In this document: positions 423-15,469 of the stretch, one piece after another
Layout: each line of letters starts with the position of its first letter
How positions within the stretch are numbered: position 1 is the first letter of the stretch
Source: Clostridiales bacterium
Lineage (GTDB): Bacteria; Bacillota; Clostridia; Christensenellales; QALW01
Length of the DNA: 19,457 nucleotides
Direction of reading: 5' to 3'
Assembly (NCBI GenBank): GCA_018376855.1
Contig: JAHAAN010000020.1
Location: 1-19,457, forward strand
The notes under the pieces: model-generated
The model's input: only the letters and a program-made list of their open reading frames with translations
What the model was told of the DNA's origin: nothing
Databases searched by the model: none
Translations under genes and position numbers: made by a program

Positions 423-435
423 TGCTTTTCACCCC

Positions 436-1173: not shown

Positions 1174-1187
1174 GTGTTTTTCCTTTC

Positions 1188-1364
1188 TCAACTTTCTGTT
1201 CTTTTTGCAGCCGCTTCAAACTCTGCAAGATGTTCTTCTGACACGCGATACATTTTCCCGATCTTCATAGCCTTCAACTTGCCGGATCTGATCCAGTCCC
1301 ATACGGTAATTTTTTTAACTCCGTACCGATTCGCCACATACTCGCAGCTATATAATGGTTTCAT
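1188..1364 (-). CDS. Small excisionase/MerR-type HTH DNA-binding protein, 58 aa (MKPLYSCEYVANRYGVKKITVWDWIRSGKLKAMKIGKMYRVSEEHLAEFEAAAKRTES).
   Basis: A complete ORF with ATG at 1364 and TGA at 1188-1190. The motif ITVWDWIRSGKL...KIGKMYRV is typical of the excisionase-family HTH. It falls below the size cutoff of the ORF track. It sits at the head of the leftward operon, divergent from the cI-like gene. Confidence 0.55.
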   Translation of the reverse strand: MKPLYSCEYVANRYGVKKITVWDWIRSGKLKAMKIGKMYRVSEEHLAEFEAAAKRTES

Positions 1365-1391
1365 GCTTTATCCCTCCTTTGCTATTGTGTT

Positions 1392-1512
1392 TTGTTCGGT
1401 TATGTGATACACTAAATAATAAAACCTATCTATAATTCAAAATACCGAACTTTTAATACAGTATAATTCATTATTCCGAATTTGTCAATAGTGTTTTTTC
1501 GGTATTTTGAAT
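1392..1512. promoter_or_regulatory. Divergent promoter/operator region of the lysogeny-switch-like module.
   Basis: A perfect 14-bp inverted repeat: TTCAAAATACCGAA at 1436-1449 and TTCGGTATTTTGAA at 1498-1511. Two more TTCGG(T/A)AT-type half-sites occur at 1394-1402 and 1473-1481. TATAAT hexamers lie at 1431-1436 and 1462-1467. The region is AT-rich and lies between divergently transcribed HTH genes. Confidence 0.45.
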
Positions 1513-1531
1513 TTTTTAAAGGGAGATCTTT

Positions 1532-1987
1532 ATGTACGAAATTTTTGAACAATTATTACATGAAAAAGGCGTTAAAGTAGCTGATGTATGCAACGCAACT
1601 GGATTAAAACCATCCACTATTTCCGAGTGGAAAAATGGCAAATCGCAATTAAGAATAGATAAATTGCTATCACTCGCCAAATATTTCGGAGTATCGCTTG
1701 ATTATTTATGCGGAAACGAAATAGGCGAACCAACACTAATAATAAAAGCAATTACCCCGCCTAACGTAGAGGCGTTACAGCGAGTATATAGCCAACTGAA
1801 CACAACAGGACAAGACAAGGTAATCGCTTATGCCGAAGACTTAATACAAAGCGGCCTGTATAAAAAAGATTCCCCCGTCCACCTCATAGCAGCACGAGGA
1901 GACGGGGGTGTGAAAGAATTGTCTGAAGAAGAATACCAAAAACTAAAAAAAGCTGTGCAGGCCATGCCGATAGTGGACGACCTATAA
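1532..1987 (+). CDS. XRE-family repressor (cI/ImmR-like), 151 aa, with an N-terminal HTH and a C-terminal extension.
   Basis: The segment VADVCNATGLKPSTISEWKNGKSQLRIDKLLSLAKYFGVSLDYL is an XRE HTH. An RBS GGGAG lies 7 nt upstream of the ATG. The gene is paired with the adjacent ImmA-type protease gene. Confidence 0.75.
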   Translation: MYEIFEQLLHEKGVKVADVCNATGLKPSTISEWKNGKSQLRIDKLLSLAKYFGVSLDYLCGNEIGEPTLIIKAITPPNVEALQRVYSQLNTTGQDKVIAYAEDLIQSGLYKKDSPVHLIAARGDGGVKELSEEEYQKLKKAVQAMPIVDDL

Positions 1988-2560
1988 ACGATGCGATTTT
2001 ATGTATTTGCGGAACTGCCGCTCTACTTTACGCTCTAATGGAGACATACCAAAACATGACCGCCCGCGGTCGATGAGGAATCGTTTTTCCCTGTCATATA
2101 GCTCTTGTAATCGTTCCATGCGGTATTCAGCTGCCGTTTGCGATATTTGGCACAACTCGGCTATTTGTTCGGCGTTCGTTACGCCCAGATCCCTAAGTAC
2201 AATAGCCGGCGCGAGCAAGCGAGCTGCAAACACATTGGCAGCTTGTTCTTTTGGATCATCCTTTGCACTTGGGTCGTGGTACACAACACCATATTTATCC
2301 GTGTGGCCGAGTAAAATGTGCCCTAACTCATGAGCCGCGGAAAAACGTTGTCGCACAGACGGATCATCGCCATTTACGATTATGGTTGGGCAGTTGTCAA
2401 TAAGAGTAGTATAACCTCCCGGTTTAAGCGTACTCCTACGGATATCAACTCCCATTTGGCGGCATAAACCTACCATGCTGACAGGCAACTCTGTGATTTT
2501 TTCGCAGATTAGGATTTCCCACGCAAGATCGCGGCTTGCTTGATAGTCTGTATATTTCAT
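1982..2560 (-). CDS. ImmA/IrrE-family zinc metallopeptidase (DUF955), 192 aa.
   Basis: Contains the HEXXH motif HELGHILLGH and the conserved context around it. Start is ATG at 2560 (MKYTDYQ) with a GGAGGTG RBS 8 nt upstream. It converges on the XRE repressor gene with a 6-nt overlap. The stop codon is TAG. Confidence 0.8.
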   Translation of the reverse strand: MKYTDYQASRDLAWEILICEKITELPVSMVGLCRQMGVDIRRSTLKPGGYTTLIDNCPTIIVNGDDPSVRQRFSAAHELGHILLGHTDKYGVVYHDPSAKDDPKEQAANVFAARLLAPAIVLRDLGVTNAEQIAELCQISQTAAEYRMERLQELYDREKRFLIDRGRSCFGMSPLERKVERQFRKYIKSHRL

Positions 2561-2741
2561 ACATACAACACCTCCACTGGCATTGTATGTCGTAATTTGT
2601 CGTTTGTACACTGGATAGTTATGGTTGGTAATTATTTTCCTGTTTTGTAAAATTAAAAATTTTGTATAAAATGTTGATTTATAAGAAATTATGTGCTAAT
2701 ATACAATTAAAAACAATTTTATATACAAATTAGGAGAAATT

Positions 2742-3236
2742 ATGAAAAAAGAAACAAAAGTCGCATCCATAGTAGTTGGAAGCATTTTAGTCGTTGGATC
2801 TGTTGGCGGAATTATAAGCAGCAACAACAACGCAACTGTAAACAATAGCGCAACAAACACAGCCGAAGCCACAACGAAACTGGCTATTTATACAACCTAT
2901 ACGCCAGCCCCATCAAACATTGAAGATTTGATTACCGTAACACCCACTATTACGCCAGCAATAACGGATGCTGCAACGGGACACCCAACCGTAACAAATA
3001 CGGCGAAACCTACCAACAAGCCTACTGTGACGCCAAAACCTACCGCAAAAAAGAAAGACTTAGTATATTGGGGCGAAAGCGGCGACAAAGTACACACTAC
3101 ACAGTGCCGCACAATCACCAATTTAGTGCAAGGCACTTTAGCAGAAGCTCACAGTGCAGGTCATACAGAATGGTGTAAAATATGTTCTCGCGGCATGACT
3201 GACGAACAATATTACTCTACTCACGAAAAGGGATGA
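2742..3236 (+). CDS. Membrane-anchored protein, 164 aa, with an N-terminal TM helix, a Thr/Pro/Asn-rich low-complexity linker and a small C-terminal His/Cys3 domain (putative zinc-binding).
   Basis: AGGAGA RBS before the ATG. The hydrophobic segment VASIVVGSILVVGSVGGII is followed by a TP-rich spacer. The C-terminus reads VYWGESGDKVHTTQCRTITNLVQGTLAEAHSAGHTEWCKIC. Confidence 0.6.
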   Translation: MKKETKVASIVVGSILVVGSVGGIISSNNNATVNNSATNTAEATTKLAIYTTYTPAPSNIEDLITVTPTITPAITDAATGHPTVTNTAKPTNKPTVTPKPTAKKKDLVYWGESGDKVHTTQCRTITNLVQGTLAEAHSAGHTEWCKICSRGMTDEQYYSTHEKG

Positions 3237-3240
3237 TCCT

Positions 3241-3438
3241 ATGGGATATGGCGGTTTTAGTTGGAGACGTGCATTGGGCATTACCAAAGCAAAACGCAAA
3301 ATCAGTCGTGCAACGGGCATCCCCCTCACGAAAGCAGGTAGACATAGGAAAATTGGAAAAGCGATAACCGGCGGCGGATGCTTGCTATATGTCATTTACG
3401 TTGTGATAATTGCATTATTTGTATTGTGGATATTATAA
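3241..3438 (+). CDS. Small hypothetical protein, 65 aa, with a basic N-terminus and a C-terminal TM segment.
   Basis: The ORF begins 5 nt after the preceding stop and carries a hydrophobic tail LLYVIYVVIIALFVLWIL. No recognisable domain. Confidence 0.3.
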   Translation: MGYGGFSWRRALGITKAKRKISRATGIPLTKAGRHRKIGKAITGGGCLLYVIYVVIIALFVLWIL

Positions 3439-3472
3439 AAACGATGATGAAGTAAAAAGGAACTTAATTACA

Positions 3473-4534
3473 ATGGCAACAGCAAAAAAGCTTCCATCAG
3501 GCCGATGGCGCTGCATTATCTATATAGGAAAAGACGAAAACGGAAAACGCATATATAAATCCGTAACCGGAGACACGAAAAAAGAAGCTGAATATGCGGC
3601 ATTGGAGTACGCAAACAATGCGCATATACAGGCCGCAAATGCAGATAAACTTACCTTTGCGCAGGCTGCTGTTGCCTATGTCGCGCAAAAAGACGCTGTG
3701 CTGTCCCCCAGTACACTAATGGAATATACCCGTTTAGCCAATCGTGGCTTTGGCGATTTTGGAAAATTATTTGTGGATGATATTACTCAAACCGATATAG
3801 ATAAATTGGTAAATACTTGGGCAAGTCAGGGTACATCCCCTAAAACAATCCGCAACAGACACGGTTTTCTAACTACCGTCATGCGTTCACAGCGGCCTGA
3901 TTTTTCTATTCACACAAAGCTACCGCAGAAAATAAAAACGGAATTTTACATTCCGGAACCAGCCCAAATTCAACGAATCTATGAATATACAAAAGGAACA
4001 CCGGTTGAACTGCCATTCCTCCTTACCTCTCAGCTTGGTTTGAGATCAAGCGAAATTGCAGGACTGCAAGTAAAGCATATAGACTTCAGCCGCAACGAAT
4101 TAACAATAACACAGGCCCGTGTAGTCTCTAATTCCGGAACATCTGTTAAAACGCCGAAAACATTTGCGGGTAATCGCACTATACCATTCGGCTCTATTGT
4201 TGCATCTGTATTACAGGCAGCATGCAACGGCAAATCAGCAACCGATTTTATTTATGCAGGCAATACAAGAAACATTCGATACGCTTGGACTGCTCTGCTA
4301 AAGCAGAACAATGAACCATACTTTCGATTTTATACGCTCCGCCATTTTTTCGCATCGCAGGCCTTGCTAAAAGGCATTCCGCAACGATATATTGCTGAAT
4401 TGATGGGGCACTCTTCGGAAAAAATGATCGAAACGGTTTATCAGCATACCTTTAAAAATGCCAAACAAAACTTTGCAAATTTAATGGCAGAAAACTCAGA
4501 TTCTCTACTCAGAAAACCTCAAAATGCAACATGA
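3473..4534 (+). CDS. int: Tyrosine-type site-specific recombinase/integrase, 353 aa.
   Basis: An N-terminal arm-binding-like segment KKLPSGRWRCIIYIGKDENGKR. The C-terminal catalytic region reads LRHFFASQALLKGIPQRYIAELMGHSSEKMIETVYQH, which has the R..H..R..Y pattern. It lies at the end of the element, directly beside tRNA-Lys. Confidence 0.85.
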   Translation: MATAKKLPSGRWRCIIYIGKDENGKRIYKSVTGDTKKEAEYAALEYANNAHIQAANADKLTFAQAAVAYVAQKDAVLSPSTLMEYTRLANRGFGDFGKLFVDDITQTDIDKLVNTWASQGTSPKTIRNRHGFLTTVMRSQRPDFSIHTKLPQKIKTEFYIPEPAQIQRIYEYTKGTPVELPFLLTSQLGLRSSEIAGLQVKHIDFSRNELTITQARVVSNSGTSVKTPKTFAGNRTIPFGSIVASVLQAACNGKSATDFIYAGNTRNIRYAWTALLKQNNEPYFRFYTLRHFFASQALLKGIPQRYIAELMGHSSEKMIETVYQHTFKNAKQNFANLMAENSDSLLRKPQNAT

Positions 4535-4569
4535 AATGCAACATAAAATGCAACATAAAATGCAAAAAG
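4521..4569. repeat. About 12-bp tandem repeat AAATGCAACAT(G/A), roughly 3.5 copies, spanning the integrase stop codon.
   Basis: Direct reading gives aaatgcaacatg aaatgcaacata aaatgcaacata aaatgcaaaaag. Confidence 0.6.
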
Positions 4570-4590
4570 CCCCGATTTTCGGGGCTTTTA
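4566..4590. terminator. Bidirectional rho-independent terminator between the integrase (+) and the tRNA operon (-).
   Basis: The hairpin is GCCCCG-attttC-GGGGC, flanked by an A-run on one side and a T-run on the other, so there are T tracts on both strands. Confidence 0.7.
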
Positions 4591-4666
4591 TGGTGATCCA
4601 TCCGGGATTCGAACCCGGGACACCCTGATTAAAAGTCAGGTGCTCTACCGACTGAGCTAATGAATC
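4591..4666 (-). tRNA. tRNA-Lys (anticodon UUU), with an encoded CCA.
   Basis: Cloverleaf built by hand. The acceptor GATTCAT pairs with ATGGATC, the anticodon stem-loop is CCTGA-cTTTTaa-TCAGG, and the T-arm is CCGGGTTCGAATCCCGG. Confidence 0.85.
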
Positions 4667-4675
4667 ATAACAAAA

Positions 4676-4750
4676 TGGCTGGGGAGGAAGGGATCGAACC
4701 TTCGCATGTCGGAATCAAAATCCGATGCCTTACCGCTTGGCTACACCCCA
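4676..4750 (-). tRNA. tRNA-Gln (anticodon UUG), with an encoded CCA.
   Basis: The 5' end is TGGGGTGTAGCCAAGCGGTAAGGCA. The anticodon arm is TCGGA-ttTTGat-TCCGA and the T-arm is GAAGGTTCGATCCCTTC. Confidence 0.8.
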
Positions 4751-4763
4751 ATAAAAGAAAAAG

Positions 4764-4841
4764 TGGGGCGAGTAGTGAGAGTCGAACCCACGACCTCCAG
4801 AGCCACAATCTGGCGCTCTAACCAACTGAGCTATACCCGCC
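4764..4841 (-). tRNA. tRNA-His (anticodon GUG), with an encoded G-1 and CCA.
   Basis: Reads G-GCGGGTATAGCTCAGTTGGTTAGAGC. The anticodon arm is CCAGA-ttGTGgc-TCTGG. G-1 pairs with the discriminator C, which is the hallmark of tRNA-His. Confidence 0.85.
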
Positions 4842-4857
4842 GTATAAAGGATAAAAG

Positions 4858-4934
<77 letters not shown>

Positions 4935-4937
4935 AAA

Positions 4938-5011
4938 TGGAGCGGGTGATGGGAATCGAACCCACGCAACCAGCTTGGAAGGCTGGGGCTCTACCATTGA
5001 GCTACACCCGC
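4938..5011 (-). tRNA. tRNA-Gly (anticodon UCC), with an encoded CCA.
   Basis: Reads GCGGGTGTAGCTCAATGGTAGAGC. The anticodon arm is CCAGC-cTTCCaa-GCTGG and the T-arm is GTGGGTTCGATTCCCAT. Confidence 0.85.
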
Positions 5012-5041
5012 GCATAAATATCTATCGCTCAAACACGTGGT

Positions 5042-5070
5042 ATTATATTACGATTATTTGCATTTGTCAA
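5042..5070 (-). promoter_or_regulatory. Consensus sigma70/sigA promoter for the tRNA operon (Gly-Arg-His-Gln-Lys).
   Basis: The minus strand reads TTGACA-N17-TATAAT exactly. This is the complement of 5065-5070 and of 5042-5047. It lies about 30 nt upstream of the tRNA-Gly 5' end. Confidence 0.7.
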
Positions 5071-5213
5071 CGCATTTTTATCGTTCAGCCATAAAAATCA
5101 GCGTTGTTTGCCACAAAGATCGTACTTTGCAAACAGAATATTGACCGTTTGGCTGCCGGCATGTTATAATAATGATAATATATGAAAACGATGTTGAAAA
5201 GGGGGGCATTCCT

Positions 5214-5597
5214 TTGAACTATCAGGTCCCGAATTATTATGTGCAGCCGCAAACCGGAAAATGCATTGCGGCGATTGTCCTTGGCGCCATATCGCTTCTG
5301 CTTTGCGGAAACGTCGTCTTCGGCATTGCCGCGATTGTCCTTGGTGCGATAGGCTATAACAACGGCACCGCCGCTCGGAACGCTATTCTGTACAATCAGT
5401 CTGTCATCGCGAACCAGCAGGCAGCGCTTTGCAATAAATACGGAAAACTCGGTTTAATTTTAGGAATCATCGGCATTGCGCTGATGGTGCTGCTGATCAT
5501 TCTATGGACTGCGCTGATCATTAACAATATCCCCTACTTGCCGGAATTTCCCGGATTCTCAGATTTCTTCGACCAATACTACAATGCAATTCGGTAA
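5214..5597 (+). CDS. DUF4190-family small membrane protein with a Tyr/Gln/Pro-rich N-terminus.
   Basis: AIVLGAIG and GKLGLILGIIGIALMVL match the DUF4190 pattern (AIVLGHIA...G.AIAGLVLGYI). The likely start is TTG at 5214, after a GGGGGG RBS. The track's ATG at 5172 lacks an RBS. There is an internal nucleotide repeat at 5263-5289 and 5326-5352. A TTGACC-N18-TATAAT promoter lies at 5138-5167. Confidence 0.55.
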   Translation: MNYQVPNYYVQPQTGKCIAAIVLGAISLLLCGNVVFGIAAIVLGAIGYNNGTAARNAILYNQSVIANQQAALCNKYGKLGLILGIIGIALMVLLIILWTALIINNIPYLPEFPGFSDFFDQYYNAIR

Positions 5598-5961
5598 ACG
5601 AGCCATATAACAACAGCGCAGGTTATTATGATAAATAACAGAAAAATTATTGTGAAAAAATTGCATGTTTTTATAACCCTGATAACACATGAATATCTAA
5701 GTAATTGGCATCTTTCGGATTTTTGTATAAATTATATTCAATATTTTTCTATGGAACAGATATGACGCGCCGAAAAGCATTGGAAAGGTCTGTCGGGAAC
5801 TATGAGGACATATTGCAGAATGATACATGTCCCAAGGATTCCTTGAAAAATTTCAGCAAAATATTGAGTTAAAAAAATTCCGGATACGCAAAGCCATAGC
5901 GTTGGTCTTTCAATGAAAGATGAAAGAAGATTTTATTGAGATGAGCGGCAAGGTCAAAACT

Positions 5962-6432
5962 TTATAATTTGCACACCATTATATATTCTTCCTCATTCTC
6001 ACTGAACACCTTAAACCCGACTTTTTTATACATGCCCACTGCATAATTTGCTTTCTGCACGGAAAGCGACACCTGTTTATAGCCTTTGCTTTTCAGAAGC
6101 CGCAGCATAGCCCGCATAAGCGCCGTACCGATTCCCAAACGGCGATACTCCTCATAAAGAGATATAGCAAGCGAAGGAGTTTCGTTATCAATATGGCCAT
6201 AATCCCTCATGATACGCGCCCATACAGCTCCTGCAATTTTCCCTTCCGATTCGGCAACTAAGCATCTATCGTCTTTTTTCCCGAAATCGGCAACATATAC
6301 TTGCAGCTCCGGCTGTTCAATAATAGCTCTCGGCGGCTTCTCCATTCCATCGGGAACAAAAATCGCTTCATATAAAAGATCTGACAGTATTGAATATTCG
6401 CTTGGTCTGATTTCTCTGATCCGATAACCCAT
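5962..6432 (-). CDS. GNAT-family N-acetyltransferase, 156 aa.
   Basis: The segment RRLGIGTALMRAMLRLLKSKGYKQVSL is the acetyl-CoA-binding motif A (R/Q-x-x-G-x-G/A). Confidence 0.8.
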   Translation of the reverse strand: MGYRIREIRPSEYSILSDLLYEAIFVPDGMEKPPRAIIEQPELQVYVADFGKKDDRCLVAESEGKIAGAVWARIMRDYGHIDNETPSLAISLYEEYRRLGIGTALMRAMLRLLKSKGYKQVSLSVQKANYAVGMYKKVGFKVFSENEEEYIMVCKL

Positions 6433-6452
6433 CTCAGCAGCTCCCCACTAAT

Positions 6453-7036
6453 TCATTTAAGCCAATACAAGCCCTCGTTTGAAGCCTGAATTTTCGCCCC
6501 GTTGGGAACCTGCCGAATTATGGAAACGACATCCATATAATCCGGAGATGGCAAAATCATTCCCATAAAGGCGGGAACAACACAGACCGTCAACAAAGCC
6601 TTCCATTGCAGCGGACAAACAAGAAAAACTGCAAGCGGGATCACCCCCAGCAGCATCGGCGAGAGCGACATAACAATATAACGGCCTTTCTTTATCGGGC
6701 AAAACGACACCGCATATGCTGTCGCCTTTTTAGGCACACGCCCACATAAACTTTTGCGTTTTTCGGGCAGCACAAGGCATGAAGAAATTCATGCACGGGT
6801 ATCAGCAAAAAACGATAACAAAGCTTAACGGCATAAACCGAAAGTCAAAAATAAACGCATTGGCTGCGCTTTTTTAACACGCAGGCAAAGCATAGGATCA
6901 ACGGAATGATCCCATACGGTATCGACGCTTTTAACAGGTTATCAGGTCTTTTTATTTTTACTGTGTTTTCCGGAGCCTGCCCATCAGGAAAGTCCTTCTC
7001 CCACTCTTGGTGGCCCTCCCAAACGATTTTCCCCAT
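6453..7036 (-). pseudogene. DUF3267-like putative zincin membrane peptidase, broken into at least 3 reading frames.
   Basis: The N-part (MGKIVWEGHQEWEKDFPDGQAPENTVKIKRPDNLL...) and the C-part (...VPKKATAYAVSF...SLSPMLLGVIPLAVFL...PDYMDVVSIIRQVPNGAKIQ) both match the DUF3267 pattern but lie in different frames. The HExxH-containing segment LIPVHEFLHALCCPK is readable in a third frame at about 6760-6815. The frame breaks sit near homopolymer runs. Confidence 0.5.
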
Positions 7037-7071
7037 ACGACCACCCCAAATCCCCAATTTTCCCGCCTTAC

Positions 7072-7536
7072 TTATAAACAAAACAGCTTGGGCGTTACCA
7101 TGCCGTCCTCAACGGTAAGGGAGGCATAGGTCGCGCGGCTCCTGCCCATTGCGCCCGGACAAACCAAACAGATTCCCTGCTCAAACGCAATATCCGCAGC
7201 ATGCGTATGCCCGTACAACACCGCCTGAACCCTCAGCTCCAAAGCGCGGTACAGCAGCCGCTGCAAGCCGTATTTCACCGCGCAAGTATGCCCATGCAGC
7301 AGCAGGATACGCGCGCCCTCCAGCGTAATGATCTCCTCAAGCGGTTTATCCGATCCGAAATCTCCGTTGCCGCGCACGGAATAAACCGGCTTTTTCGTAA
7401 GCGGCGCAAACGCTTCCGCGTCGGACACATAATCGCCCAAATGCGCATAGGCGGCGCCGTCCCGCGTCAGCGCAAGAAACCTTTCAAAGCCATCCCGATA
7501 TCCGTGCGTATCGGAAAACGCATAAATTTGTTTCAT
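7072..7536 (-). CDS. YfcE/MJ0936-family metallophosphoesterase (phosphodiesterase), 154 aa.
   Basis: The motifs FSDTHG, HLGDY, GNGD and LLHGHTH together form the calcineurin-like phosphoesterase signature. Confidence 0.8.
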   Translation of the reverse strand: MKQIYAFSDTHGYRDGFERFLALTRDGAAYAHLGDYVSDAEAFAPLTKKPVYSVRGNGDFGSDKPLEEIITLEGARILLLHGHTCAVKYGLQRLLYRALELRVQAVLYGHTHAADIAFEQGICLVCPGAMGRSRATYASLTVEDGMVTPKLFCL

Positions 7537-7905
7537 TTTAATTTCTATACCTCACTGAATTTATAGCGCGGTTTTGTTCGCGAAAACAAGGCGGAAGCAC
7601 ACACGGGCGGAATTTTTTGCTTAAGGCATTTCTAAAACGCTTTTCTAAAAATACGCTGAGTATTGCTCCGCTCGCATCGGCGTTTCCACTCTCTTAAAAG
7701 AGAACGGCAGCCTAAACGGCTTTCAATCCGCAAACTCACTTCACTTGATATTGAAAGTAAAGCTCCACTTTAAAATAATACCCCTGAAAAATCCAAAGAC
7801 CCTTCCAACAAAAAACAGCCATAGCTTATTCCGGCCAAAAAAATCTTTCGGCGCTGTGTCTCACAGCTGCAAAACAGGCGGCCGATAGGCCGCCCGCAAT
7901 ACTTT

Positions 7906-8490
7906 CTATTTTCTTTTCCTTACAGCATAAACGATCAGCTCTGCGGCCTCGTCCAGCCCCATATCCGTATTGATCATAAGGTCGTAATTTTTATAGTCTC
8001 CCCAGTTACGCTCAGAGATCCGCGCGTAGTAGGCCGCTCGCTGTTTATCGTGCCGGCGGATCTCCGCGCGCGCCTTCTGCTGCGCAACGCCGTACTCCTC
8101 AACAGCACGGCGTTCCCGCGATGTAAGCGGCGCATAAAGAAACACTCTAAGCAGGTTCGGATCCTTCCGCAGAATATAATCGGCGCAGCGCCCCACGATA
8201 ATGCAGGAATCCTTCTCTGCTATGCTGCGAATCGCACGTGTCTGTTCCACAAAGACCTGATCGGAAGCAGGCAGCTGCGCGGAATGCATGTAAACGCTGT
8301 AAAGCAGGCTGGATGTGGGCTTTTGCTCCACACTCTCCACATACTCCGGCGTAAACCCCGTTTGCTCCGAGATCATGCCGATCAGCTTTTTGTCATATAC
8401 TGCAACGCCGAGAAGCTCCCCAAGCTTTTGCGCAACCGTGCGCCCGCCCGAAGCATACTCCCGGCTTACCGTCAAAACGATGCGTTCCAT
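7906..8490 (-). CDS. Cytidylate kinase-like (AAA/P-loop-like) family protein, 194 aa.
   Basis: The N-terminus IVLTVSREYASGGRTVAQKLGELLGVAVYDKKLI is typical of cytidylate-kinase-like family proteins. A GC hairpin at 7876-7893, just downstream, could act as a terminator. Confidence 0.65.
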   Translation of the reverse strand: MERIVLTVSREYASGGRTVAQKLGELLGVAVYDKKLIGMISEQTGFTPEYVESVEQKPTSSLLYSVYMHSAQLPASDQVFVEQTRAIRSIAEKDSCIIVGRCADYILRKDPNLLRVFLYAPLTSRERRAVEEYGVAQQKARAEIRRHDKQRAAYYARISERNWGDYKNYDLMINTDMGLDEAAELIVYAVRKRK

Positions 8491-8511
8491 ACATGCCCTC
8501 CTTTTGCCGTT

Positions 8512-8839
8512 TTACTCGCCGCAATGCCCTCCGCAGGAGGAACAGCCGCAATCGCACCCGCTGTCCCCGCAGCCGCAGCTATGCTGATGCTCCAACCGCT
8601 CAATGATCACAGGCGTAACGCGCTCCATTTCTTCATCCGAAGGCATTTCAAAGTTTTCAATTTGGTCTCCGTTAAAAATCGCCCGCATAACATACAGATT
8701 CGGCTGCTCGTTCTCCTGCAGCTGATCCTCCGGCGTTACAAACAAGGCATAGTGCTGCCCATCAAACTCAAAGGCATCCGCCATCAGCAGCGGCATTTCC
8801 TTGCCTGTCTCATCCTTAAAATACATTACTTCACTCATT
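8512..8839 (-). CDS. DUF1292-family protein with an unusual Cys-rich C-terminal tail, 109 aa.
   Basis: The N-terminal core MSEVMYFKDETGKEMPLLMADAFEFDGQHYALFV is DUF1292-like. The tail reads HSCGCGDSGCDCGCSSCGGHCGE. Start is ATG at 8839 with an RBS GGAAAGGAA. Confidence 0.6.
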
Positions 8840-8922
8840 CTTTTCAATTCCTTTCCATTTATAATCCTATTATAACCAAAACCGCCAAAACTGCAAGAGT
8901 TTTCTCTCGCCAAGCGGCATGC

Positions 8923-9885
8923 TCAGCTCAAAACACGCTCCGTGGTTTTAAAGTGCAGCTTGGCATAGCTGCGCAGCGCCTCTTCGCCCAGCTCCCGAAC
9001 CAGCCTGCGCGCCTGCTGCTCCACCGCAGGCGAAGCACCCTTTTGCAGCTCAAACCCGCAAAGCTCGCTCATTCGCGCCATAGATGCAAGATAGCGTTCC
9101 CTTGCCAGCACCGAGGCTGCGGCAACTGCGGCATCCCGCTCCCCCTTTGGCGTTTGAAACAAGCGGGTGCTGCGCCCGCGTTCCATCAAGGCGCGCTCAA
9201 GCACATGCTCGCTGCTGAACTGATCCGCAACGATCGCCCTACAATTTGGATTCGCCGTTAAAAGATTTTCGATCACACGCGCATGTCCCCACGCAAGCAG
9301 TGTGTTCAGGTTTCCCGTGCGCGCATACAGCGCATTGTATTTTTCCGGAGAAATACATATGATCTCTATGCAGGCGGGGCTTAACGCCTGCCGCAGCTCA
9401 GCGGCCAGCGCAGTATTTTTTTTATCGCTGTTCAGCTTGGAATCGCAAGCTCCAAGCGTTTCAAGCAGCTTCAGCGCCCTGTCGTCCGCGCAAACGCCCG
9501 CGATTACCAGCGGCCCAAAATAATCCCCCTTGCCCGATTCGTCGGTTCCGATATGCTCGCCAAGTTCGGGCAGTTCTTTAACCGGACGTGCTGAACCCCC
9601 CCCTTGCACCGTCTTTTCACAAGCCTGCAAAGCCAGTTGAGGCGCCAGCCCTTCTCCCGCGTTTCCCGCCTTGCCCATCGTAACAAGCTTCGTACTCCGC
9701 CCGTTTTTCTGATTAAAATAAAGCGTAAGCGAAAACGCTTCCCCGTCCGCAGTCTCTGCGCAAAGACGCACCCCGTAATCAACCGGCTGAAAACGGATAT
9801 TACCGCACCCCAACGCCTTCAGGCGTTTTTCTAACGTCAATTCCGCCTCCCCTGCCCCGCACTCAAACGGAACCGATATCGCCAT
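8923..9885 (-). CDS. rnhC: Ribonuclease HIII.
   Basis: The catalytic motif GTDESGKGDYFGPLVIAGV belongs to the RNase HII/HIII family. An N-terminal DUF3378-like domain of about 90 aa distinguishes HIII. The likely start is ATG at 9885 (MAISVPFE). Confidence 0.75.
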   Translation of the reverse strand: MAISVPFECGAGEAELTLEKRLKALGCGNIRFQPVDYGVRLCAETADGEAFSLTLYFNQKNGRSTKLVTMGKAGNAGEGLAPQLALQACEKTVQGGGSARPVKELPELGEHIGTDESGKGDYFGPLVIAGVCADDRALKLLETLGACDSKLNSDKKNTALAAELRQALSPACIEIICISPEKYNALYARTGNLNTLLAWGHARVIENLLTANPNCRAIVADQFSSEHVLERALMERGRSTRLFQTPKGERDAAVAAASVLARERYLASMARMSELCGFELQKGASPAVEQQARRLVRELGEEALRSYAKLHFKTTERVLS

Positions 9886-10014
9886 AACAATCCCCTGCCT
9901 TTTTTCAATTCGCCGCAAAGAACCCCCGCGCAAAAATTCATTTTCACGGTCGCTTCCCTGTCCTGCCCTTATTATAATTGTATCACATCTTTTTTGTTTG
10001 CGCTACACAGAACA

Positions 10015-10043
10015 TTGACAGTTTCTCCGTTCTGTGCTATTAT
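10015..10043 (+). promoter_or_regulatory. Near-consensus promoter for tRNA-Arg(CCT).
   Basis: TTGACA at 10015-10020, a 17-nt spacer, then TATTAT at 10038-10043. It lies about 32 nt upstream of the tRNA. Confidence 0.6.
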
Positions 10044-10074
10044 TTCTAAGTAAATATGCTCATTAAATTAAAAT

Positions 10075-10151
10075 GTTTCCGTAGCTCAGCAGGATAGAGC
10101 GTTTGCCTCCTAAGCGAAAGGCCGGCGGTTCGAATCCGCCCGGGAACACCA
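10075..10151 (+). tRNA. tRNA-Arg (anticodon CCU), with an encoded CCA.
   Basis: Reads GTTTCCGTAGCTCAGCAGGATAGAGCG. The anticodon arm is TTTGC-cTCCTaa-GCGAA, the T-arm is GGCGGTTCGAATCCGCC, and the acceptor pairs with one G-U. Confidence 0.8.
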
Positions 10152-10198
10152 AAACGAAAATCCTGTCGATTTCAGTCGGCAGGATTTTCGTTTTGTAT
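10152..10198 (+). terminator. Rho-independent terminator after tRNA-Arg(CCT).
   Basis: A long imperfect hairpin from ACGAAAATCCTG to CAGGATTTTCGT, followed by TTTTGTATT. Confidence 0.65.
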
Positions 10199-10935
10199 TA
10201 TTCAATATTCAATCGACAGGATTTTCAATGAATAATGAAATAATGAAGTTGCCTTACTGATGAATCACGAATAATTGATTTTAAATTAAGATACATTACA
10301 AAATAAACAGAATTTAACGCGAATGTTCAAGTGCAGACACCAAAAATAAAAATACATCTATATTCGATTGTCTTCACATCGGGATTCCGCATAGACACCG
10401 TGTGCAGTTTTTCCATATTTAATTATTATTACGACAAGAACAAAAATTCCTGTCTTTTTTGTTGTTTTAGAGCGATTGTTATCACGGTTGACCGGATAAC
10501 ACGCTGCTAAAATGGCTATCAAAAAAGGCACTAAAGCGATCCAAAGCTCCGAATCATTATAAAATTACAGAGCATTACATAACCATAATTATTCAAAGGC
10601 AACAAAACGTCTAATGCAAACATCACCCTAAGCCCCGCAAAAATCGAACTTATCAGCAATGCATCAGGCGAATACCCCGCTTCCTTTGGGGTCAAAATAC
10701 GAAAAAGCCGCCGTTAAATACTATAAAAAAACAACAAACCCATGGTAAAAAATTGCAAAAGAACAAAGACATTCGGCGGTTTATTCATAAAAGGCAGCAA
10801 AGACATATCGGAATCCCCATTTTAAAGCCGGCATACAGACTGCATCTTAAAAAACGTTCATTAAACCCGAACGCTCTTAAAATGAAGATTTGTTTACGAA
10901 AAAGCATAAAAAAGTTCCTGTTTCATACGTCAATA

Positions 10936-11560
10936 AACGATCTCTTTTATAAAAGCGAAAGAAAAAACGGAATTCAGCTCCTCCCACCCGTTCTGATGAC
11001 AAACAGGGATCGACGCTATAGCGCTTTCGATCTCCTGCACGCTGCACTACTCTATGTATCGGTTCACTCTATCAAGCCTCCGCCCTTCGCCAAGCTCCGA
11101 AGAATTTCTTTTTAAATCAAGCAGCTTTTCTACGTCCGGCTTCATTTCGCTGTCAAGATATTTAAGGCTGAAACAGCATAGGCAGCGTTCCTTCGGCTAA
11201 TATCCATTTGCACGCAAGCAACAAGCGAAGCACATAAAAATATTTTTTCAGCCGCACGGTTTCACCTTTAAGATATTCCCTATAATTGCTTTTGGCTGTG
11301 TTTAAATAGTGATAAACCCCTGCTTTGGCAACAAAATACCGATCGATAATCGCAGAAATGCCCCACCACTCAATAACGTCTCTTGTTTTATTAAGGCAAA
11401 GATAGAACTCCTTTGGCCGAACATAGATAAACCGCACGTCATAATCGCTGTCAGGCGAAGCAACGCCCCAAGCCCTGTTGCCCGATTCAACGCAATGAAA
11501 TATTCCGATATTTTCCTTTTCTTCAATTTCCTTCAGCTTAAGCCGTATAAGCTTCTACAT
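10936..11560 (-). pseudogene. RtcB-associated predicted nucleotidyltransferase (PF10127-like 'Nuc-transf' family), disrupted.
   Basis: The RBS GGGAGAAGG precedes ATG at 11560, and TAG follows immediately at 11557-11555. The open frame then reads KEIEEKENIGIFHCVESGNRAWGVASPDSDYDVRFIYVRPKEF...KKYFYVLRLLLACKWILAEG, which resembles the conserved N-half of this family. There is a frameshift at about 11165-11175. It continues in another frame as YLDSEMKPDVEKLLDLKRNSSELGEGRRLDRVNRYIE, then a TAG at 11049-11047, then CSVQEIESAIASIP...GWEELN. Confidence 0.55.
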
Positions 11561-11654
11561 GTTTTTTGCCTTCTCCCTTCCCTTATGTAATGCAAATTTC
11601 ATCCTATCCGCTTTCCCTTTATGCTCCGAATTGCGCTAAGAATACAGCGGCAAA

Positions 11655-12863
11655 TCACTCTGCCGCTTTAAAATTATATATGGGCTTGATATGCGCGATA
11701 ATTTCCGCAGTAGGCGCTATATTCGCAACGATTTCATCCATATTCTTATACGCCATAGGGGACTCGTCAAGCGTAGCGGCGTTCACGCAGGTGGTATAAA
11801 CACCTTTCATTTGCTCTTTATACTCCTCCATGGTAAGCCTTTCAAACGCTGCTGAACGGGACATAAGCCGCCCTGCGCCGTGGGGCGCGGAACAGTTCCA
11901 CTCCGCATTGCCCTTGCCCGTGCAGATCAGGCTTCCGTCGCGCATGTTGATGGGGATCAGCAGCCTCTCTCCCTTCTTAGCAGATACGGAGCCTTTCCGC
12001 AGGACCCTTTCTTCCACGTCAATGTAATTGTGGATCGTATGAAATGCAGCTCTGCCGGTCAGCCCGGCTTTATCAAGCAGGATCTCCGCCATCTTCTCGC
12101 GATTGCGCGCAGCAAACTGCTGGCAAATGTTGATATCGTGCAGGTAATCCTCCATAAAAGCGCCGTAAAGATAGCAAAGCTCTCTGGGCATTGTGAGCTC
12201 CTTGGCCTCCCATTCCCCTGCAATCGCTTTCAGCGCGGCCTGAATATCGCTTTTGCGCCCGTCTTCTTTATAGGCGCGTATGATTTCATCCCTCTGCTTA
12301 AAGTATTCTTCCTTCCCGATGTTCAGATCTATGGCCATATTCTGATAAAATTCCGCGACCTGTGTTCCCAAATTACGGCTGCCGGAATGAATGATAAGAT
12401 ATTGATTCCCCTCCGCATCCGCATCGATCTCAATAAAGTGATTGCCTCCGCCGAGCGTGCCGATGCTTCTTTCAAGCCGCTTTGTATCCTTCAAATTACG
12501 GCAGCATCTGAGCACCGTAAGGTCAAAATGCTCCTGTCTGCCTTCCCACACTCTTCTGCCGCAGGGAATGCAGTGCGCCGCCCGATCAAACGCTTCAAGG
12601 TCGATATCCGCCTTGCCGAGATCAACCGTATACATTCCACAGCCGATATCCACACCGACCATATTGGGAACAACCTTGTCAACGACCGTCATCGTTGTGC
12701 CGATCGTGCAGCCCTTTCCTGCATGAACATCGGGCATGATGCGTATTTTCGATTCAGCAAAGGCTTCCTCATTGCATACCGATTCAATCTGCGCATAAGC
12801 TGTAGGCTCAAGCTCATCAGTGTAACAGACTGCCTTATTAAATTTTCCGATTATTTCAATCAT
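11655..12863 (-). CDS. rtcB: RNA-splicing ligase RtcB (3'-phosphate/5'-OH RNA ligase), 402 aa, intact.
   Basis: Hallmark motifs are present: MPDVHAGKGCTIG, GGGNHFIEID, HSGSRNLG, HNYI and APHGAGR. An RBS AAAAGGAG precedes the ATG. Confidence 0.85.
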   Translation of the reverse strand: MIEIIGKFNKAVCYTDELEPTAYAQIESVCNEEAFAESKIRIMPDVHAGKGCTIGTTMTVVDKVVPNMVGVDIGCGMYTVDLGKADIDLEAFDRAAHCIPCGRRVWEGRQEHFDLTVLRCCRNLKDTKRLERSIGTLGGGNHFIEIDADAEGNQYLIIHSGSRNLGTQVAEFYQNMAIDLNIGKEEYFKQRDEIIRAYKEDGRKSDIQAALKAIAGEWEAKELTMPRELCYLYGAFMEDYLHDINICQQFAARNREKMAEILLDKAGLTGRAAFHTIHNYIDVEERVLRKGSVSAKKGERLLIPINMRDGSLICTGKGNAEWNCSAPHGAGRLMSRSAAFERLTMEEYKEQMKGVYTTCVNAATLDESPMAYKNMDEIVANIAPTAEIIAHIKPIYNFKAAE

Positions 12864-12940
12864 AACACAACTCCTTTTAAAAATGCCGCAAAAGCTTTAG
12901 GCCGAAATCGCCGCCAACCTTCCGCGCTTTCCTCTTCTCA

Positions 12941-14044
12941 TTACGCATGCTTTCCCTTTATAATGCCCGTAAGCTGCGCAAGAATATCGCCGGCGCTATT
13001 GAGCGTAATATTCCCCACATTCTCACAAATCCGCTCAACATACTCAAGCTCCTTGAGCCTGTAAAGCGTTTGGTTCTCATCCATCAGCTTTGCCGTGTTC
13101 AGCAAGGATCTGGTAGACGCAACCTCCTCACGGCGGGTGATCACATTCGCCTGCGCGCGCTTTTCCGCAACCAGCACGGTGTTCATGATCTCACGGATCT
13201 CTCCGGGAAGAATAATATCCTTAACGCCGGCGTCCGTGATCTCGACAAACAGTTCTTTCTCCTTTGCTTTAAGCTTCTCAAACACAAACTCAGACATTTG
13301 ATCTTTGCTCTCAAGGATCTCATCCAGTTTATGCTTGCCTACATACTCGCGCAGCGCCAACTGCGCCGCAACATGCATTTGCTCGGCAAAGTCGTCGATC
13401 TCCGTCAGGATCTTCACATAGTCGGTTACACGGTAGCTGCATACGAAGTTAATGCGAAGCGACACTTTATCCTGCGTAAGGATCTCCTGCCCGGTAACGT
13501 CCATCTGCGTAAGCCTGGTGTCCACATAACCGACGTCGATCTTGACGCCGGTTTTCCAAAAATAATATGTTCCGGCATCCAAAATCCTGACAAATTTTTG
13601 GTTGAAGTAGAGCCTTGCCTTTTGGTACTCTAAAACCTCCACCTTGGTGTAATATACCGCTGGCAGCTTAGAGAAGATATATTCCGGCACAGACGGCTCG
13701 ACCTCCGGCGTTGAAATATCGGCTATCCTGTATTCATGCCGACCGGCAGCCTCCCAAAAGGCATACTTACCCTGACGGAGCACAGAAACAAACTTCCCGT
13801 TCACGAAATGGAGCGCCAGCTCTTCGTCCGCAACCTCGATCACCGAAACGCTGTTTGCCACCGCCTCATCCCTGAGAAGTGTATCCAACGTGCACTTGTT
13901 CGATACGATCGGCTGATCCAGCTCCGTAATTTCGATCTCTCTGCCGCTGAAAAGACGGTACTTTCCGGCTGTAAGCATTTTAACATACTTTCCGTTTTTA
14001 AAAAGAAAGCCTCTTTGGTTCTGGTTAATCATAATCTTTTTCAT
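12941..14044 (-). CDS. Slipin-type SPFH/band-7 family protein with three N-terminal tandem repeats, 367 aa.
   Basis: Three copies of an F-x-NGK(Y/F)V-x-L-x-x-GKY-x-FW-like motif: QRGFLFKNGKYVKMLTAGKYRLF, LHFVNGKFVSVLRQGKYAFW and RLYFNQKFVRILDAGTYYFW. These are followed by an SPFH core (ILTQDKVSLRINFVCSYRVTDYVKI...AQLALREYVGKHKLDEIL...AEKRAQANVI). An RBS AGGAGG precedes the ATG. It lies 77 nt upstream of rtcB on the same strand. Confidence 0.7.
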   Translation of the reverse strand: MKKIMINQNQRGFLFKNGKYVKMLTAGKYRLFSGREIEITELDQPIVSNKCTLDTLLRDEAVANSVSVIEVADEELALHFVNGKFVSVLRQGKYAFWEAAGRHEYRIADISTPEVEPSVPEYIFSKLPAVYYTKVEVLEYQKARLYFNQKFVRILDAGTYYFWKTGVKIDVGYVDTRLTQMDVTGQEILTQDKVSLRINFVCSYRVTDYVKILTEIDDFAEQMHVAAQLALREYVGKHKLDEILESKDQMSEFVFEKLKAKEKELFVEITDAGVKDIILPGEIREIMNTVLVAEKRAQANVITRREEVASTRSLLNTAKLMDENQTLYRLKELEYVERICENVGNITLNSAGDILAQLTGIIKGKHA

Positions 14045-14231
14045 AATATGTAAAACCTCCTAAAAGTTAAAATACGGCTGCAATTTCTCATGAAACGCCT
14101 GCGGCCGAAAATTTCAGCGATCTCCCATGCAGGCGGAAAGGCGAGCTTCTGGCCTGCATACTTGATGCGCGGTATCCGTTTTCGGGCAAGGCAAGCGCTT
14201 CATTGCTTTTGGCTGAGCAATTGCACAAAAT

Positions 14232-14503
14232 AAAAAAACGTTCCTGCGTGCTTTCGCACGCCGTTTCCTATGCCGTTTCCGGCAGATACCAAACCACTGG
14301 CGATATGCTCAAGCGAGCATACGGCGGGATTCGAACCCGCGATAAGCGGACTTGACCGGTCCTCGAGGAATTTCCCCATCTGTCGAAGCCTCCAAGGCTC
14401 ATCAGATTGTCAAAGAGCAAGAGCTGCTTCGGGCATACACGTCGGCATCGCCTTGTGCACCGCAGTGAAAGATCTGTTCAAACACACGCTTGAAGCTTCC
14501 TTG
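14232..14503 (-). ncRNA. Candidate small RNA or 5'-leader carrying a tRNA T-arm mimic, ending in an intrinsic terminator.
   Basis: Minus-strand signals in order. An extended -10 TGgTAAAAT is the complement of 14511-14519. A T-arm-like hairpin GCGGG-TTCGAAT-CCCGC is the complement of 14323-14339. A terminator GCGTGC-GAAA-GCACGC followed by AGGAACGTTTTTTTATTTT is the complement of about 14228-14262. No ORF is present. Confidence 0.3.
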
Positions 14504-14540
14504 CGAGTAGATTTTACCAATAAATTCCCCATCAAACACG

Positions 14541-14574
14541 GAAAAAAAGCTGCGAGCTTAAAAAAGTCCGCAGC
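14541..14574 (-). terminator. Rho-independent terminator immediately after the downstream WYL gene.
   Basis: The minus strand reads GCTGCG-gacttttttaagct-CGCAGC followed by TTTTTTT. The stop codon lies inside the hairpin. Confidence 0.55.
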
Positions 14575-15469
14575 CTCTTTGCCTTTGCAGGCGTTCTATG
14601 ATTAAATTTCTAAAACGCTCCGGTTCGGTTACCTCTATCAAAGGGCCAAAGCCCAAAACGCGTATGACCATTTCCGTTTCATCGTCCTTGTCGTACCGAA
14701 TATGCACAAGGTAATGCTTTTCATCGATCCGCTCCGCCCGCTTTTCAAAGTGCGCGAAGTGAAGCATGCAGCGCTCCAAGGCATTTCTTTCATCACAAAT
14801 GCGCAAAACAACGGTTCTTTGCGGCGGCGAAGAAACCACCGACGGTGCAAAACCGCACGCCGAGCCCTTCTCACAGGAGACGATCCGCGCAAGATTAACG
14901 GTTTCTCCGTACCGGCATCCGGTACTAAGCAAGCGAAACTTATCATCCTTTTCAGAATACTCTAACCGCACCGGCAAGACCGTCATCGTCAGCAGCTTGC
15001 CTTTGCGGTTAAGCATCTGAATTTTAAGCGACTGCCTATCCCGGACAGCCGACAGCGCCGTTCTGAACCGCGCAATATAGCCTTCGTCCTGATAAGGATC
15101 GCCGTCGCCGTATTTGTCATAAATAAAGCAGTCAGCCGCCTTGAAAAGCGGCTCCACACCCTCAAGGCCGCTTATTTCCATTCCAAACAGCCTGATGCGC
15201 GGGTCAAGCGATATGGCCTTTAGCCATTGCTTTTGAAGCAGCGTCAGCGGCATTGTCGGCTTATGCTTGATCGGTGTAGACAGATCGTTCCTTGCAAGCT
15301 GCCACTTTTCGTTTTTTAACGACGGAAGGATCGTCAGCACACTTTCGCCGAACGCATTTTCACAGACTATTTTATTTAATTCTTTTTCCGAAGCGCCGCC
15401 CTCTATCATTCTTGCGATGATTTTCGCCACCGCATTATAATAAGCAGAATAAAGCTCATTAAAAATCAT
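14558..15469 (-). CDS. WYL-domain protein with a C-terminal WCX domain, 303 aa. No obvious N-terminal HTH.
   Basis: The WYL-like core is LLTMTVLPVRLEYSEKDDKFRLLSTGCRYGETVNLARIVSCE. The WCX-like tail is MVIRVLGFGPLIEVTEPERFRNLIIERL. It overlaps the upstream WYL gene by 4 nt (ATGA). Confidence 0.6.
   Translation of the reverse strand: MIFNELYSAYYNAVAKIIARMIEGGASEKELNKIVCENAFGESVLTILPSLKNEKWQLARNDLSTPIKHKPTMPLTLLQKQWLKAISLDPRIRLFGMEISGLEGVEPLFKAADCFIYDKYGDGDPYQDEGYIARFRTALSAVRDRQSLKIQMLNRKGKLLTMTVLPVRLEYSEKDDKFRLLSTGCRYGETVNLARIVSCEKGSACGFAPSVVSSPPQRTVVLRICDERNALERCMLHFAHFEKRAERIDEKHYLVHIRYDKDDETEMVIRVLGFGPLIEVTEPERFRNLIIERLQRQRGCGLF

Follow-up and report, generated by a model that had tools for sequence, protein, structure and literature searches.

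Contig JAHAAN010000020.1 of a Clostridiales bacterium (assembly GCA_018376855.1), analysed here over its positions 1 to 19,457 and referred to as the window, carries on its minus strand a pair of WYL-domain genes, an intergenic region, a gene for a Band-7 (SPFH or slipin) protein and rtcB, which encodes an RNA ligase, as assigned by Pfam on the open reading frames (ORFs) of the window. A preliminary description, made from the sequence alone, had singled out the intergenic positions 14232-14520 for a tRNA T-arm lying between a promoter element and a terminator. Here, we report that the region probably encodes a structured non-coding RNA in which a conserved 5′ domain, a tRNA-like core in circularly permuted order and, beyond a terminator-like hairpin, a long second domain (domain B) follow one another. 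This RNA accompanies Band-7, not RtcB alone.

The case rests on comparison with relatives, because the single-sequence fold of the window RNA is only mildly better than that of shuffled sequences (z = -1.8). The second WYL protein (WYL2, 303 amino acids (aa)) has thousands of relatives, 476 of them in a one-genome-per-species scan of GTDB, and 80 loci were fetched, all from uncultured Oscillospiraceae, Acutalibacteraceae or ‘Clostridia’ of gut and rumen; 40 relatives align over the whole length of the RNA. ORFs called mechanically, 41-59 aa long, overlap the region, so that its earlier description as ORF-free does not hold to the letter, but substitutions and indels among the relatives follow RNA helices, not codons.

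The core consists of an anticodon-arm-like hairpin, a short variable linker, a T-arm, a loop-closed acceptor-like stem (AS) and a D-like GG loop, in that order (Table 1). Read in this way it is, as judged from sequence and covariation, a complete tRNA that has been circularly permuted, running from position 27 round to 26, with its acceptor end closed. The absence of matching acceptor and anticodon arms, noted earlier, is thus true for the normal tRNA order, but both arms are present in permuted order. With this structure imposed on 56 sequences, pairing covers 87% of the cells, compensatory changes occur in 18 of 23 pairs, and shuffled and slid controls of the core alignment score far lower. 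All four stem pairs of the anticodon-arm-like hairpin covary, as do two pairs of the T stem (CG to UA in 10 sequences, GC to AU in 6) and all four of the downstream hairpin H1, which reads GUCC-UUCG-GGAC in other relatives. Each of the six scored AS pairs has a compensatory change (95.5% of cells paired), and the AS loops are short, A-rich and variable in length, with no CCA or discriminator. In the D-like element the A and the GG are nearly invariant and stem pairing is supported for the CC/GG pairs only; a longer D stem that includes G74:U88 was rejected, being unpaired in 26 of the 56 sequences. The equivalent of tRNA position 48 (alignment column 31) and that of position 15, which is nucleotide two of the D-like loop (column 78), are C:G in 50 sequences, U:A in 3 and other combinations in 3, and L203, which lies outside the alignment, adds one more U:A; this covariation matches the behaviour of a Levitt pair.

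The anticodon-like loop itself follows a pattern. Among 30 relatives in register, all 30 have a pyrimidine at position 32, 29 have U at position 33, and A occupies position 37 in 23 and position 38 in 24, around three variable middle positions (GUC, GUA, CAA, UUU, GAC and others); the window loop, CGGUCAA, is the sole exception at position 33, with G for U. With a covariance model of the core, the window reaches 90.6 bits (E 4e-21; the model was quick-calibrated and its E-values are rough) and 44 sources reach 35-99 bits, some of them outside the seed, with true tRNAs reaching at most 27 bits. The T-arm is no chance occurrence: the T-loop 11-mer, with up to one mismatch, has 8 occurrences in the window, where 1.7 would be expected; six are in tRNAs and one is the T-arm site. 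The element also keeps its place in 44 of the sources searched.

Upstream of the core lies a 5′ domain that the preliminary description did not mention. It is closed by P1 and further contains P2 (CUUC/GAAG), P3 (GUG/CAC), P4 and P5 (GGC/GCC). Across 38 sequences, 96.7% of its cells are paired, with 8 compensatory pairs (at the third P5 pair, 21 sequences have A:U and 17 have C:G), and 0 of 500 shuffles do as well; the domain is nevertheless strongly conserved in sequence. A variable insert, missing from short variants of the RNA family, separates this domain from the core, and in many relatives it holds a second T-arm-like hairpin, GGGGUUCAACUCCCC, of which the window has a degenerate copy. 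Two further structures were considered and set aside. A hammerhead ribozyme at CUGAUGAG (14405-14398) is not upheld by the relatives, which have CGAAUGAG, CCUAUGAG and the like at this place, and the flanks merely covary as a helix. A long-range pairing of CACUGCGG in the 5′ domain with CCAGUGG in the D element fails on inspection, as its variants do not compensate.

The boundaries of the RNA largely bear out what had been proposed. An extended -10 element, placed earlier at about 180 nucleotides (nt) before the T-arm, is present at 171 nt, and relatives have TG-n-TAnnnT 6-7 nt upstream of a conserved GCAAGG, where the conserved CUUGCAAGG begins; a scan for paired -35 and -10 boxes missed it because no -35 is present. 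Directly upstream, the WYL gene pair ends in a hairpin followed by U7, and the extended -10 lies about 20 nt farther on; the WYL genes thus appear to be terminated separately and the RNA to have its own promoter. The sequence AGTTCGCAGCTTTTTTTCCGTG, which follows the WYL2 stop codon, is nearly invariant in nearly all of the 80 loci and may have a second role as operator of the WYL regulators. The GAAA-tetraloop terminator that had been located about 60 nt past the T-arm is likewise present, at 63 nt, as the upper part of a two-part hairpin whose two stems both covary in relatives and whose lower stem leads into the U-run. A GC-rich hairpin with an immediate U-run, as in intrinsic terminators, is thus found in the window, and the two-part hairpin looks like a leaky terminator in this genome. 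From promoter to U-run the RNA would measure about 275 nt.

Structure continues beyond this point, outside the 14232-14520 interval first assigned, so that the RNA is larger than had been thought. Domain B is a long irregular rod that fills most of the 190 nt from the U-run to the Band-7 start, its 3′ end lying about 20 nt before the Shine-Dalgarno sequence. It is closed by a 10-bp helix, GCAAUUGCUC/GAGAAAUUGC in the window and GUUAUCAUUC/GAAUGAUAAC in other relatives, and its conserved loops include GCCUUGCC, GGAUACCG, GCCAAAAG..CUUUCCGC and CGGCCGC. Of 47 predicted pairs, 37 have compensatory changes; 93.1% of the cells are paired and 0 of 500 shuffles are as good. As it starts 8 nt after the U-run, domain B would be transcribed by read-through only. 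The comparative alignment thus finds compensatory changes in the core, the 5′ domain, the terminator hairpin and domain B alike.

Table 1 Features of the WYL-WYL/RNA/Band-7/RtcB locus in the window, in order along the minus strand
Feature	Position	Strand	Description and basis
WYL1 gene	15466-16719	-	417 aa; Pfam WYL; PADLOC WYL model match
WYL2/WCX gene	14558-15469	-	303 aa; Pfam WCX; PADLOC WYL model match
WYL gene-pair terminator	14542-14574	-	GCUGCG (within last WYL2 codons) pairs with CGCAGC, then U7
Conserved sequence AGTTCGCAGCTTTTTTTCCGTG	14537-14574	-	3′ half of WYL terminator plus CCGTG; about 20 nt upstream of extended -10
Extended -10, TGGTAAAAT	14519-14511	-	Sequence; transcription start inferred near 14505
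Conserved 5′ domain	14504-14417	-	P1-P5; RNAalifold and pair counts
P1, GCAAG/CUUGC	14504-14500/14421-14417	-	Closing helix of 5′ domain
P4, GGUGCAC/GUGUAUGCC	14461-14455/14440-14432	-	
Variable insert	14416-14363	-	AUCUG/CAGAU around GAGCC/GGCUU; alignment of 40 relatives
Degenerate second T-arm-like hairpin	14377-14365	-	GGGGA-AAU-UCCUC
Anticodon-arm-like hairpin	14362-14348	-	GGAC-CGGUCAA-GUCC, 7-nt loop; 7 nt upstream of T-arm
Position-48 equivalent	14341	-	C, just before T stem
T-arm	14340-14324	-	GCGGG-UUCGAAU-CCCGC, perfect; 171 nt downstream of -10
Loop-closed acceptor-like stem (AS)	14322-14303	-	GUAUGCUC-GCUU-GAGCAUAU
D-like element	14301-14288	-	GCC-AGUGGUUU-GGU
Hairpin H1	14283-14272	-	GCCG-GAAA-CGGC
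Two-part hairpin and U-run	14265-14232	-	AACG / GCGUGC-GAAA-GCACGC / AGGAA / CGUU; conserved internal loop
Upper hairpin	14261-14246	-	GCGUGC-GAAA-GCACGC
Lower stem, AACG/CGUU	14265-14262/14240-14237	-	
U-run	14238-14232	-	
Domain B	14224-14080	-	Long irregular structured rod; covariation; beyond the coordinates of the preliminary description
Closing helix of domain B	14224-14215/14089-14080	-	10 bp
Shine-Dalgarno sequence of Band-7 gene	14060-14056	-	GGAGG; sequence
Band-7/SPFH (slipin) gene	12941-14044	-	367 aa; Pfam Band_7 1e-26
rtcB, RNA ligase gene	11655-12863	-	402 aa; Pfam RtcB 1.8e-57

Standard searches pass over this RNA. ARAGORN and the Rfam tRNA model (RF00005) call the six true tRNAs of the window and none at 14232-14520, and a permissive Rfam scan of positions 14000-14650 (E<=10) returns T-arm-level fragments only, such as beta_tmRNA with 15 bits, where the threshold is 84. 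Rfam searches of the window and 18 loci at gathering threshold, and at E<=10 of the region, one sibling intergenic region and the Citrobacter region, likewise yield only tRNA- or T-arm-level matches; whether Rfam contains a YrlA model was not established, and this null result is therefore no test of membership in that family. Domain B has zero Rfam matches, and blastn against phages and plasmids returned zero matches.

The association with Band-7 emerges from the genes that follow the WYL pair. The fetched loci have intergenic regions of constant length, about 500-540 nt before the next gene starts, and in most loci GGTTCGAATCC is found 170-250 nt past the WYL stop codon. Where the next gene is Band-7 (43 loci), the permuted module is present in 40: 37 by the strict T-AS-D pattern and L001, L024 and L075 by covariance model. 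None of the 22 loci in which a DUF2828/DUF7788 protein comes next has it, and these hold one to three normal-order tRNA-likes with odd anticodons; where RtcB follows directly (3 loci), the spacer is about 100 nt, with no RNA. Metagenome contigs found by the RNA pattern alone point the same way, with Band-7 immediately 3′ in 14 of the 15 that have enough flank, the WYL pair usually upstream and RtcB often downstream. In a single metagenome scan with a broad DNA pattern, about 18 of 120 stretches were family members, the rest being mostly ordinary tRNAs with chance matches behind them; the same pattern in viral contigs gave 5 stretches, none recognisable as family and most in tRNA contexts.

Several relatives are of interest in their own right. 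The cultured Subdoligranulum variabile has the full WYL-WYL-RNA-Band7-RtcB locus, with an RNA scoring 57.8 bits (L207 3655-3756, OY725857.1). The DUF2828/DUF7788-RtcB sibling loci (L014, L021, L022, L025-L028, L032, L034-L038, L043-L045, L049, L060, L068, L069, L073 and L079) have spacers of 0.4-1.7 kb made up of module arrays, each module closed by AAGGCRC..ACAGCAA / GYGCCUU and most of them holding normal-order tRNA-likes (Ile-UAU, Arg-UCG, Phe-AAA/GAA, Ser-CGA); these arrays look like multi-unit Y-RNA-like genes. One such locus, L028, has tRNA-likes and a DUF2828 protein followed by a permuted RNA (7619-7719), and in L149 (1341-6093) the RNA is followed by Band-7, a DUF2828 protein and RtcB in turn.

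PDB searches match the Band-7 protein to stomatins. Its sequence is conserved at 78-96% identity in many species, a higher degree of conservation than that of the WYL proteins. Its AlphaFold2 model, confident for residues 1-170 only (mean predicted local distance difference test score 55.6), places three β-rich repeats in that segment, before the SPFH domain; a motif of the type FxNGKxxxxLxxGxY recurs in them. Outside stomatin/HflK the fold matches are weak (major vault protein, E 0.05), and by eye the sequence has no hydrophobic stretch suggesting a membrane anchor. Full-length slipin orthologues with 34-36% identity occur in Proteobacteria, and the P. aeruginosa rtc locus also contains an SPFH gene. 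The WYL proteins and the DUF2828 protein gave zero matches in PDB sequence searches, and PADLOC, run on the window proteins, recognised the WYL domains alone, so that the locus is not a listed defence system. Elsewhere in the window, positions 1-5011 hold the end of an integrated element (Bro-N, an HTH/Peptidase_M78 pair and a tyrosine integrase at 3410-4534) that abuts a cluster of five tRNA genes (4591-5011), with housekeeping genes between it and the RtcB locus; upstream of WYL1, positions 16720-18480 are an AT-rich 1.7 kb without an ORF of at least 100 aa or an Rfam hit.

On balance, and with moderate confidence, we read the region as the gene for a structured non-coding RNA that is the Clostridial tRNA-mimic counterpart of YrlA and of the tRNA associated with Band-7 (b7a-tRNA), set in a WYL-regulated Band-7/RtcB repair operon; by position and mimicry, the RNA is most likely a partner of the Band-7/RtcB RNA-repair module. 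Transcription would start from the extended -10 just past the WYL terminator, probably under control of the WYL pair, which occupies the place held by the CARF regulator RtcR in enterobacteria, and would yield the roughly 275-nt RNA and, by read-through, domain B together with the mRNA of band7-rtcB. A tRNA-type elbow, as solved for YrlA, would be formed by T-loop and D-like GG loop, and the non-tRNA domains would bind soluble Band-7 protein. The tRNA-shaped module could then be offered to RtcB or to tRNA-recognising enzymes, the RNA acting as scaffold, cofactor or competitive decoy while nuclease-cut tRNA is repaired.

Several observations weigh against this interpretation. The whole of the proposed function is read from position and mimicry. 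The D stem is down to two invariant pairs, which leaves conservation and a single covarying tertiary pair as the basis of the elbow, and the flanks of the tRNA-like module show no visible pairing with each other in the alignments. In L015, L031, L005 and L024 the 5′ domain and domain B are kept and the T-arm module is lost or degraded, so the module is not indispensable. Many alignment members were chosen by sequence pattern, which favours the structure, and almost all sequences come from metagenome assemblies, Subdoligranulum variabile being the exception. The terminator hairpin is kept in relatives, but its U-run is weak or absent in about half; for this reason, and as domain B starts 8 nt behind the U-run, the RNA may be active only as part of an mRNA leader.

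Taken further, this last point becomes an explanation that we regard as improbable, though it deserves serious consideration: the RNA up to the U-run (domain A) and domain B would together be the roughly 460-nt 5′ untranslated region of band7-rtcB, the hairpin and U-run an attenuator, and the tRNA mimic an operator for RtcB, Band-7 or a WYL protein that sets read-through or translation. Regulation by mimicry has a model in the thrS leader of E. coli, which works by imitating tRNA-Thr, and much of the layout fits. The RNA lies on the same strand as Band-7 and directly upstream, the 8 nt between U-run and domain B leave no space for a separate promoter, the sole promoter-like hit before Band-7 in the -35/-10 scan overlaps the start codon, the U-run ranges from strong to absent, and there is no RNA where Band-7 is missing. 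However, inspection of the alignment, which was not exhaustive, found no conserved antiterminator pairing; the one candidate, which would pair GCGUGUG of the 5′ domain with the terminator’s 3′ half, fails in a second subgroup, where the stem is inverted. Domain B leaves the Shine-Dalgarno sequence unsequestered, no Rfam leader or riboswitch family matches, and YrlA, the known RNA of the same architecture, is a stable, trans-acting component of a ribonucleoprotein (RNP).

The remaining explanations take the tRNA mimicry more literally. The anticodon-like loop could bait invading anticodon nucleases, the cut RNA, with its 2′,3′-cyclic phosphate, switching on the WYL proteins and RtcB resealing both the RNA and the tRNAs. 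The loop pattern with its variable middle triplet would suit such a decoy, as would the arrays of one to three tRNA-likes with assorted anticodons at sibling loci; RtcR, which the WYL pair replaces in position, is activated by tRNA fragments (PMC7790460), and WYL, like CARF, is described as a ligand-binding domain of regulators (PMC4012209). The RtcR precedent makes the idea possible and lends it no direct support, an anticodon nuclease did not cut YrlA in Salmonella, sequence kinship inflates the loop pattern, and the window loop has G, not U, at position 33. We therefore consider a decoy of this kind quite unlikely, and we are hardly less doubtful of a broader version in which a sentinel tRNA of this sort, set out for nucleases of phages or toxins, its fragments read by the WYL proteins, works with Band-7 as a soluble RNA-binding cage in a bacterial vault-like RNP. 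The vault-like RNP is hinted at because the β-repeats and SPFH domain weakly match major vault protein and because L149 combines Band-7, DUF2828 and RtcB; the Band-7 family is otherwise regarded as membrane scaffolds. A genuine Ro60-binding Y RNA, orthologous to YrlA, would explain the T/AS/D order and the 15:48 covariation beside rtcB and is nevertheless very improbable. The Ro60-binding motif GNCGAAN0-1G is missing within the first 60 nt from all 40 relatives and from the window, a Pfam scan of 14 window ORFs of at least 100 aa, which left a few other ORFs unscanned, found no Ro60/TROVE, and the RNA tracks Band-7, with DUF2828-type loci using other, normal-order tRNA-likes. Least probable of all is that the element is what remains of a tRNA gene, or that it is a permuted gene giving a working tRNA on maturation. 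The perfect T-arm, and a tRNA-Arg gene and a tRNA cluster elsewhere in the window, might suggest it, but the element keeps its position in dozens of species, each of its helices shows compensatory changes, AS is capped by variable A-rich loops and offers no CCA or discriminator, and neither ARAGORN nor Rfam reveals flanking tRNA homology; the remnant explanation, raised in the preliminary description, is thereby ruled out.

We know of no established function for the tRNA-like RNAs of RtcB operons, YrlA and b7a-tRNA, and to our knowledge the Band-7-linked type has only been predicted. As a kind, tRNA-like RNAs that go with Ro60 or Band-7 within RtcB operons have been known since 2014-2016 through comparative genomics. 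Mimicry of tRNA around a T-arm is also seen in the tRNA-like domain of tmRNA and in red algae with permuted tRNA genes; such genes have their 3′ half upstream of the 5′ half and require an RtcB-type ligase to mature. The window RNA differs from both in having no CCA end and an acceptor stem that is capped, not processed. ARAGORN finds no tmRNA and Rfam the T-arm only, a tag reading frame not having been searched for separately, and by eye no bulge-helix-bulge motif was seen in the window RNA.

The closest known RNA is YrlA, known from Salmonella, Mycobacterium and over 250 further bacteria and phages (PMC4201824; bioRxiv 10.1101/312249). It is defined by T, AS and D stem-loops in that order, with an optional upstream V stem-loop, by the 15:48 covariation, by the 5′ Ro60 motif and by a TROVE gene within 4 kb on the same strand (Chen et al. 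2014, PMC4201824), and the structure of its tRNA-like domain has been solved (PDB 6CU1; Wang et al. 2018, bioRxiv 10.1101/312249). YrlA is further known to be modified by TruB/DusA and to be bound by Rsr. The two RNAs share the permuted order with a closed AS, the conserved T-loop and D-loop GG, the covarying 15:48 Levitt pair and a place in RtcB repair operons. The anticodon-arm-like hairpin here occupies the place of the V stem-loop of YrlA, but has a 7-nt loop, and the window RNA has a reduced D stem. In YrlA the RNA’s own 5′ and 3′ ends pair as an anticodon-stem equivalent; here no such pairing was seen in the alignments, and the module sits between a 5′ domain of about 90 nt, closed by P1, and further hairpins; YrlA has Ro60/TROVE as partner and RtcR as regulator, the window RNA Band-7 and WYL proteins. 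By its sequence, the RNA resembles YrlA’s tRNA-like domain but is not a strict Ro60-type Y RNA, because no Ro60 gene was found among the window ORFs scanned and no Ro60-binding motif in the RNA. The likeness to YrlA beside slipin-RtcB that was proposed at the outset thus stands for the order of stems and the 15:48 covariation, and gives way for the partner, which is constantly Band-7.

By partner, the nearer comparison is b7a-tRNA, predicted in 2016 by Burroughs and Aravind and, according to bioRxiv 10.1101/312249, never validated; that source (Wang et al. 2018) also notes that YrlA occasionally adjoins a Band-7 gene, the arrangement met in the window. The window RNA, like b7a-tRNA as described there, is encoded beside a Band-7 gene and RtcB, but b7a-tRNA is described in that text as strongly tRNA-like, whereas the window RNA is permuted and called by neither ARAGORN nor the Rfam tRNA model. 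In Burkholderia cenocepacia (L209 2666-2738) and a Photobacterium sp. (L210 2665-2806), ARAGORN finds normal-order tRNA-likes with aberrant anticodon loops before slipin-RtcB; these are probably the published b7a-tRNA. Citrobacter freundii (L206 3680-3995) and E. coli (L208 3510-3828, NZ_CP048605.1) have an unannotated RNA-like region between a sigma-54 promoter and slipin, in which, by eye, GGGGUUAAACCCC, a T-arm, a loop-closed hairpin and a GG element follow one another as in Clostridia. These loci differ in their sigma-54 promoter, in a divergent rtcR (annotated in Citrobacter) and in continuing with a nucleotidyltransferase, not RtcB. On this region the Clostridial model finds the T-arm only, at 12 bits, and RNA homology there rests on inspection.

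Set against these systems, the window locus adds a tRNA mimic that is permuted, complete and linked to Band-7 in Clostridia, a 5′ domain and domain B, the WYL context and the co-occurrence rule. It defines an RNA family that is missing from Rfam and widespread among Oscillospiraceae of gut and rumen, and gives it a covariation-supported architecture of 5′ domain, complete permuted tRNA mimic and rod-like second domain. If the partnership of RNA and protein is real, an SPFH/stomatin-family protein would be working with an RNA, and WYL regulators would be tied to the sensing of RNA damage. The partnership is testable in cultured Subdoligranulum variabile and in the E. coli slipin locus, which is present in 1632 of 5426 complete genomes (30%); the Band-7-linked rule appears to extend from Clostridia to E. 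coli.

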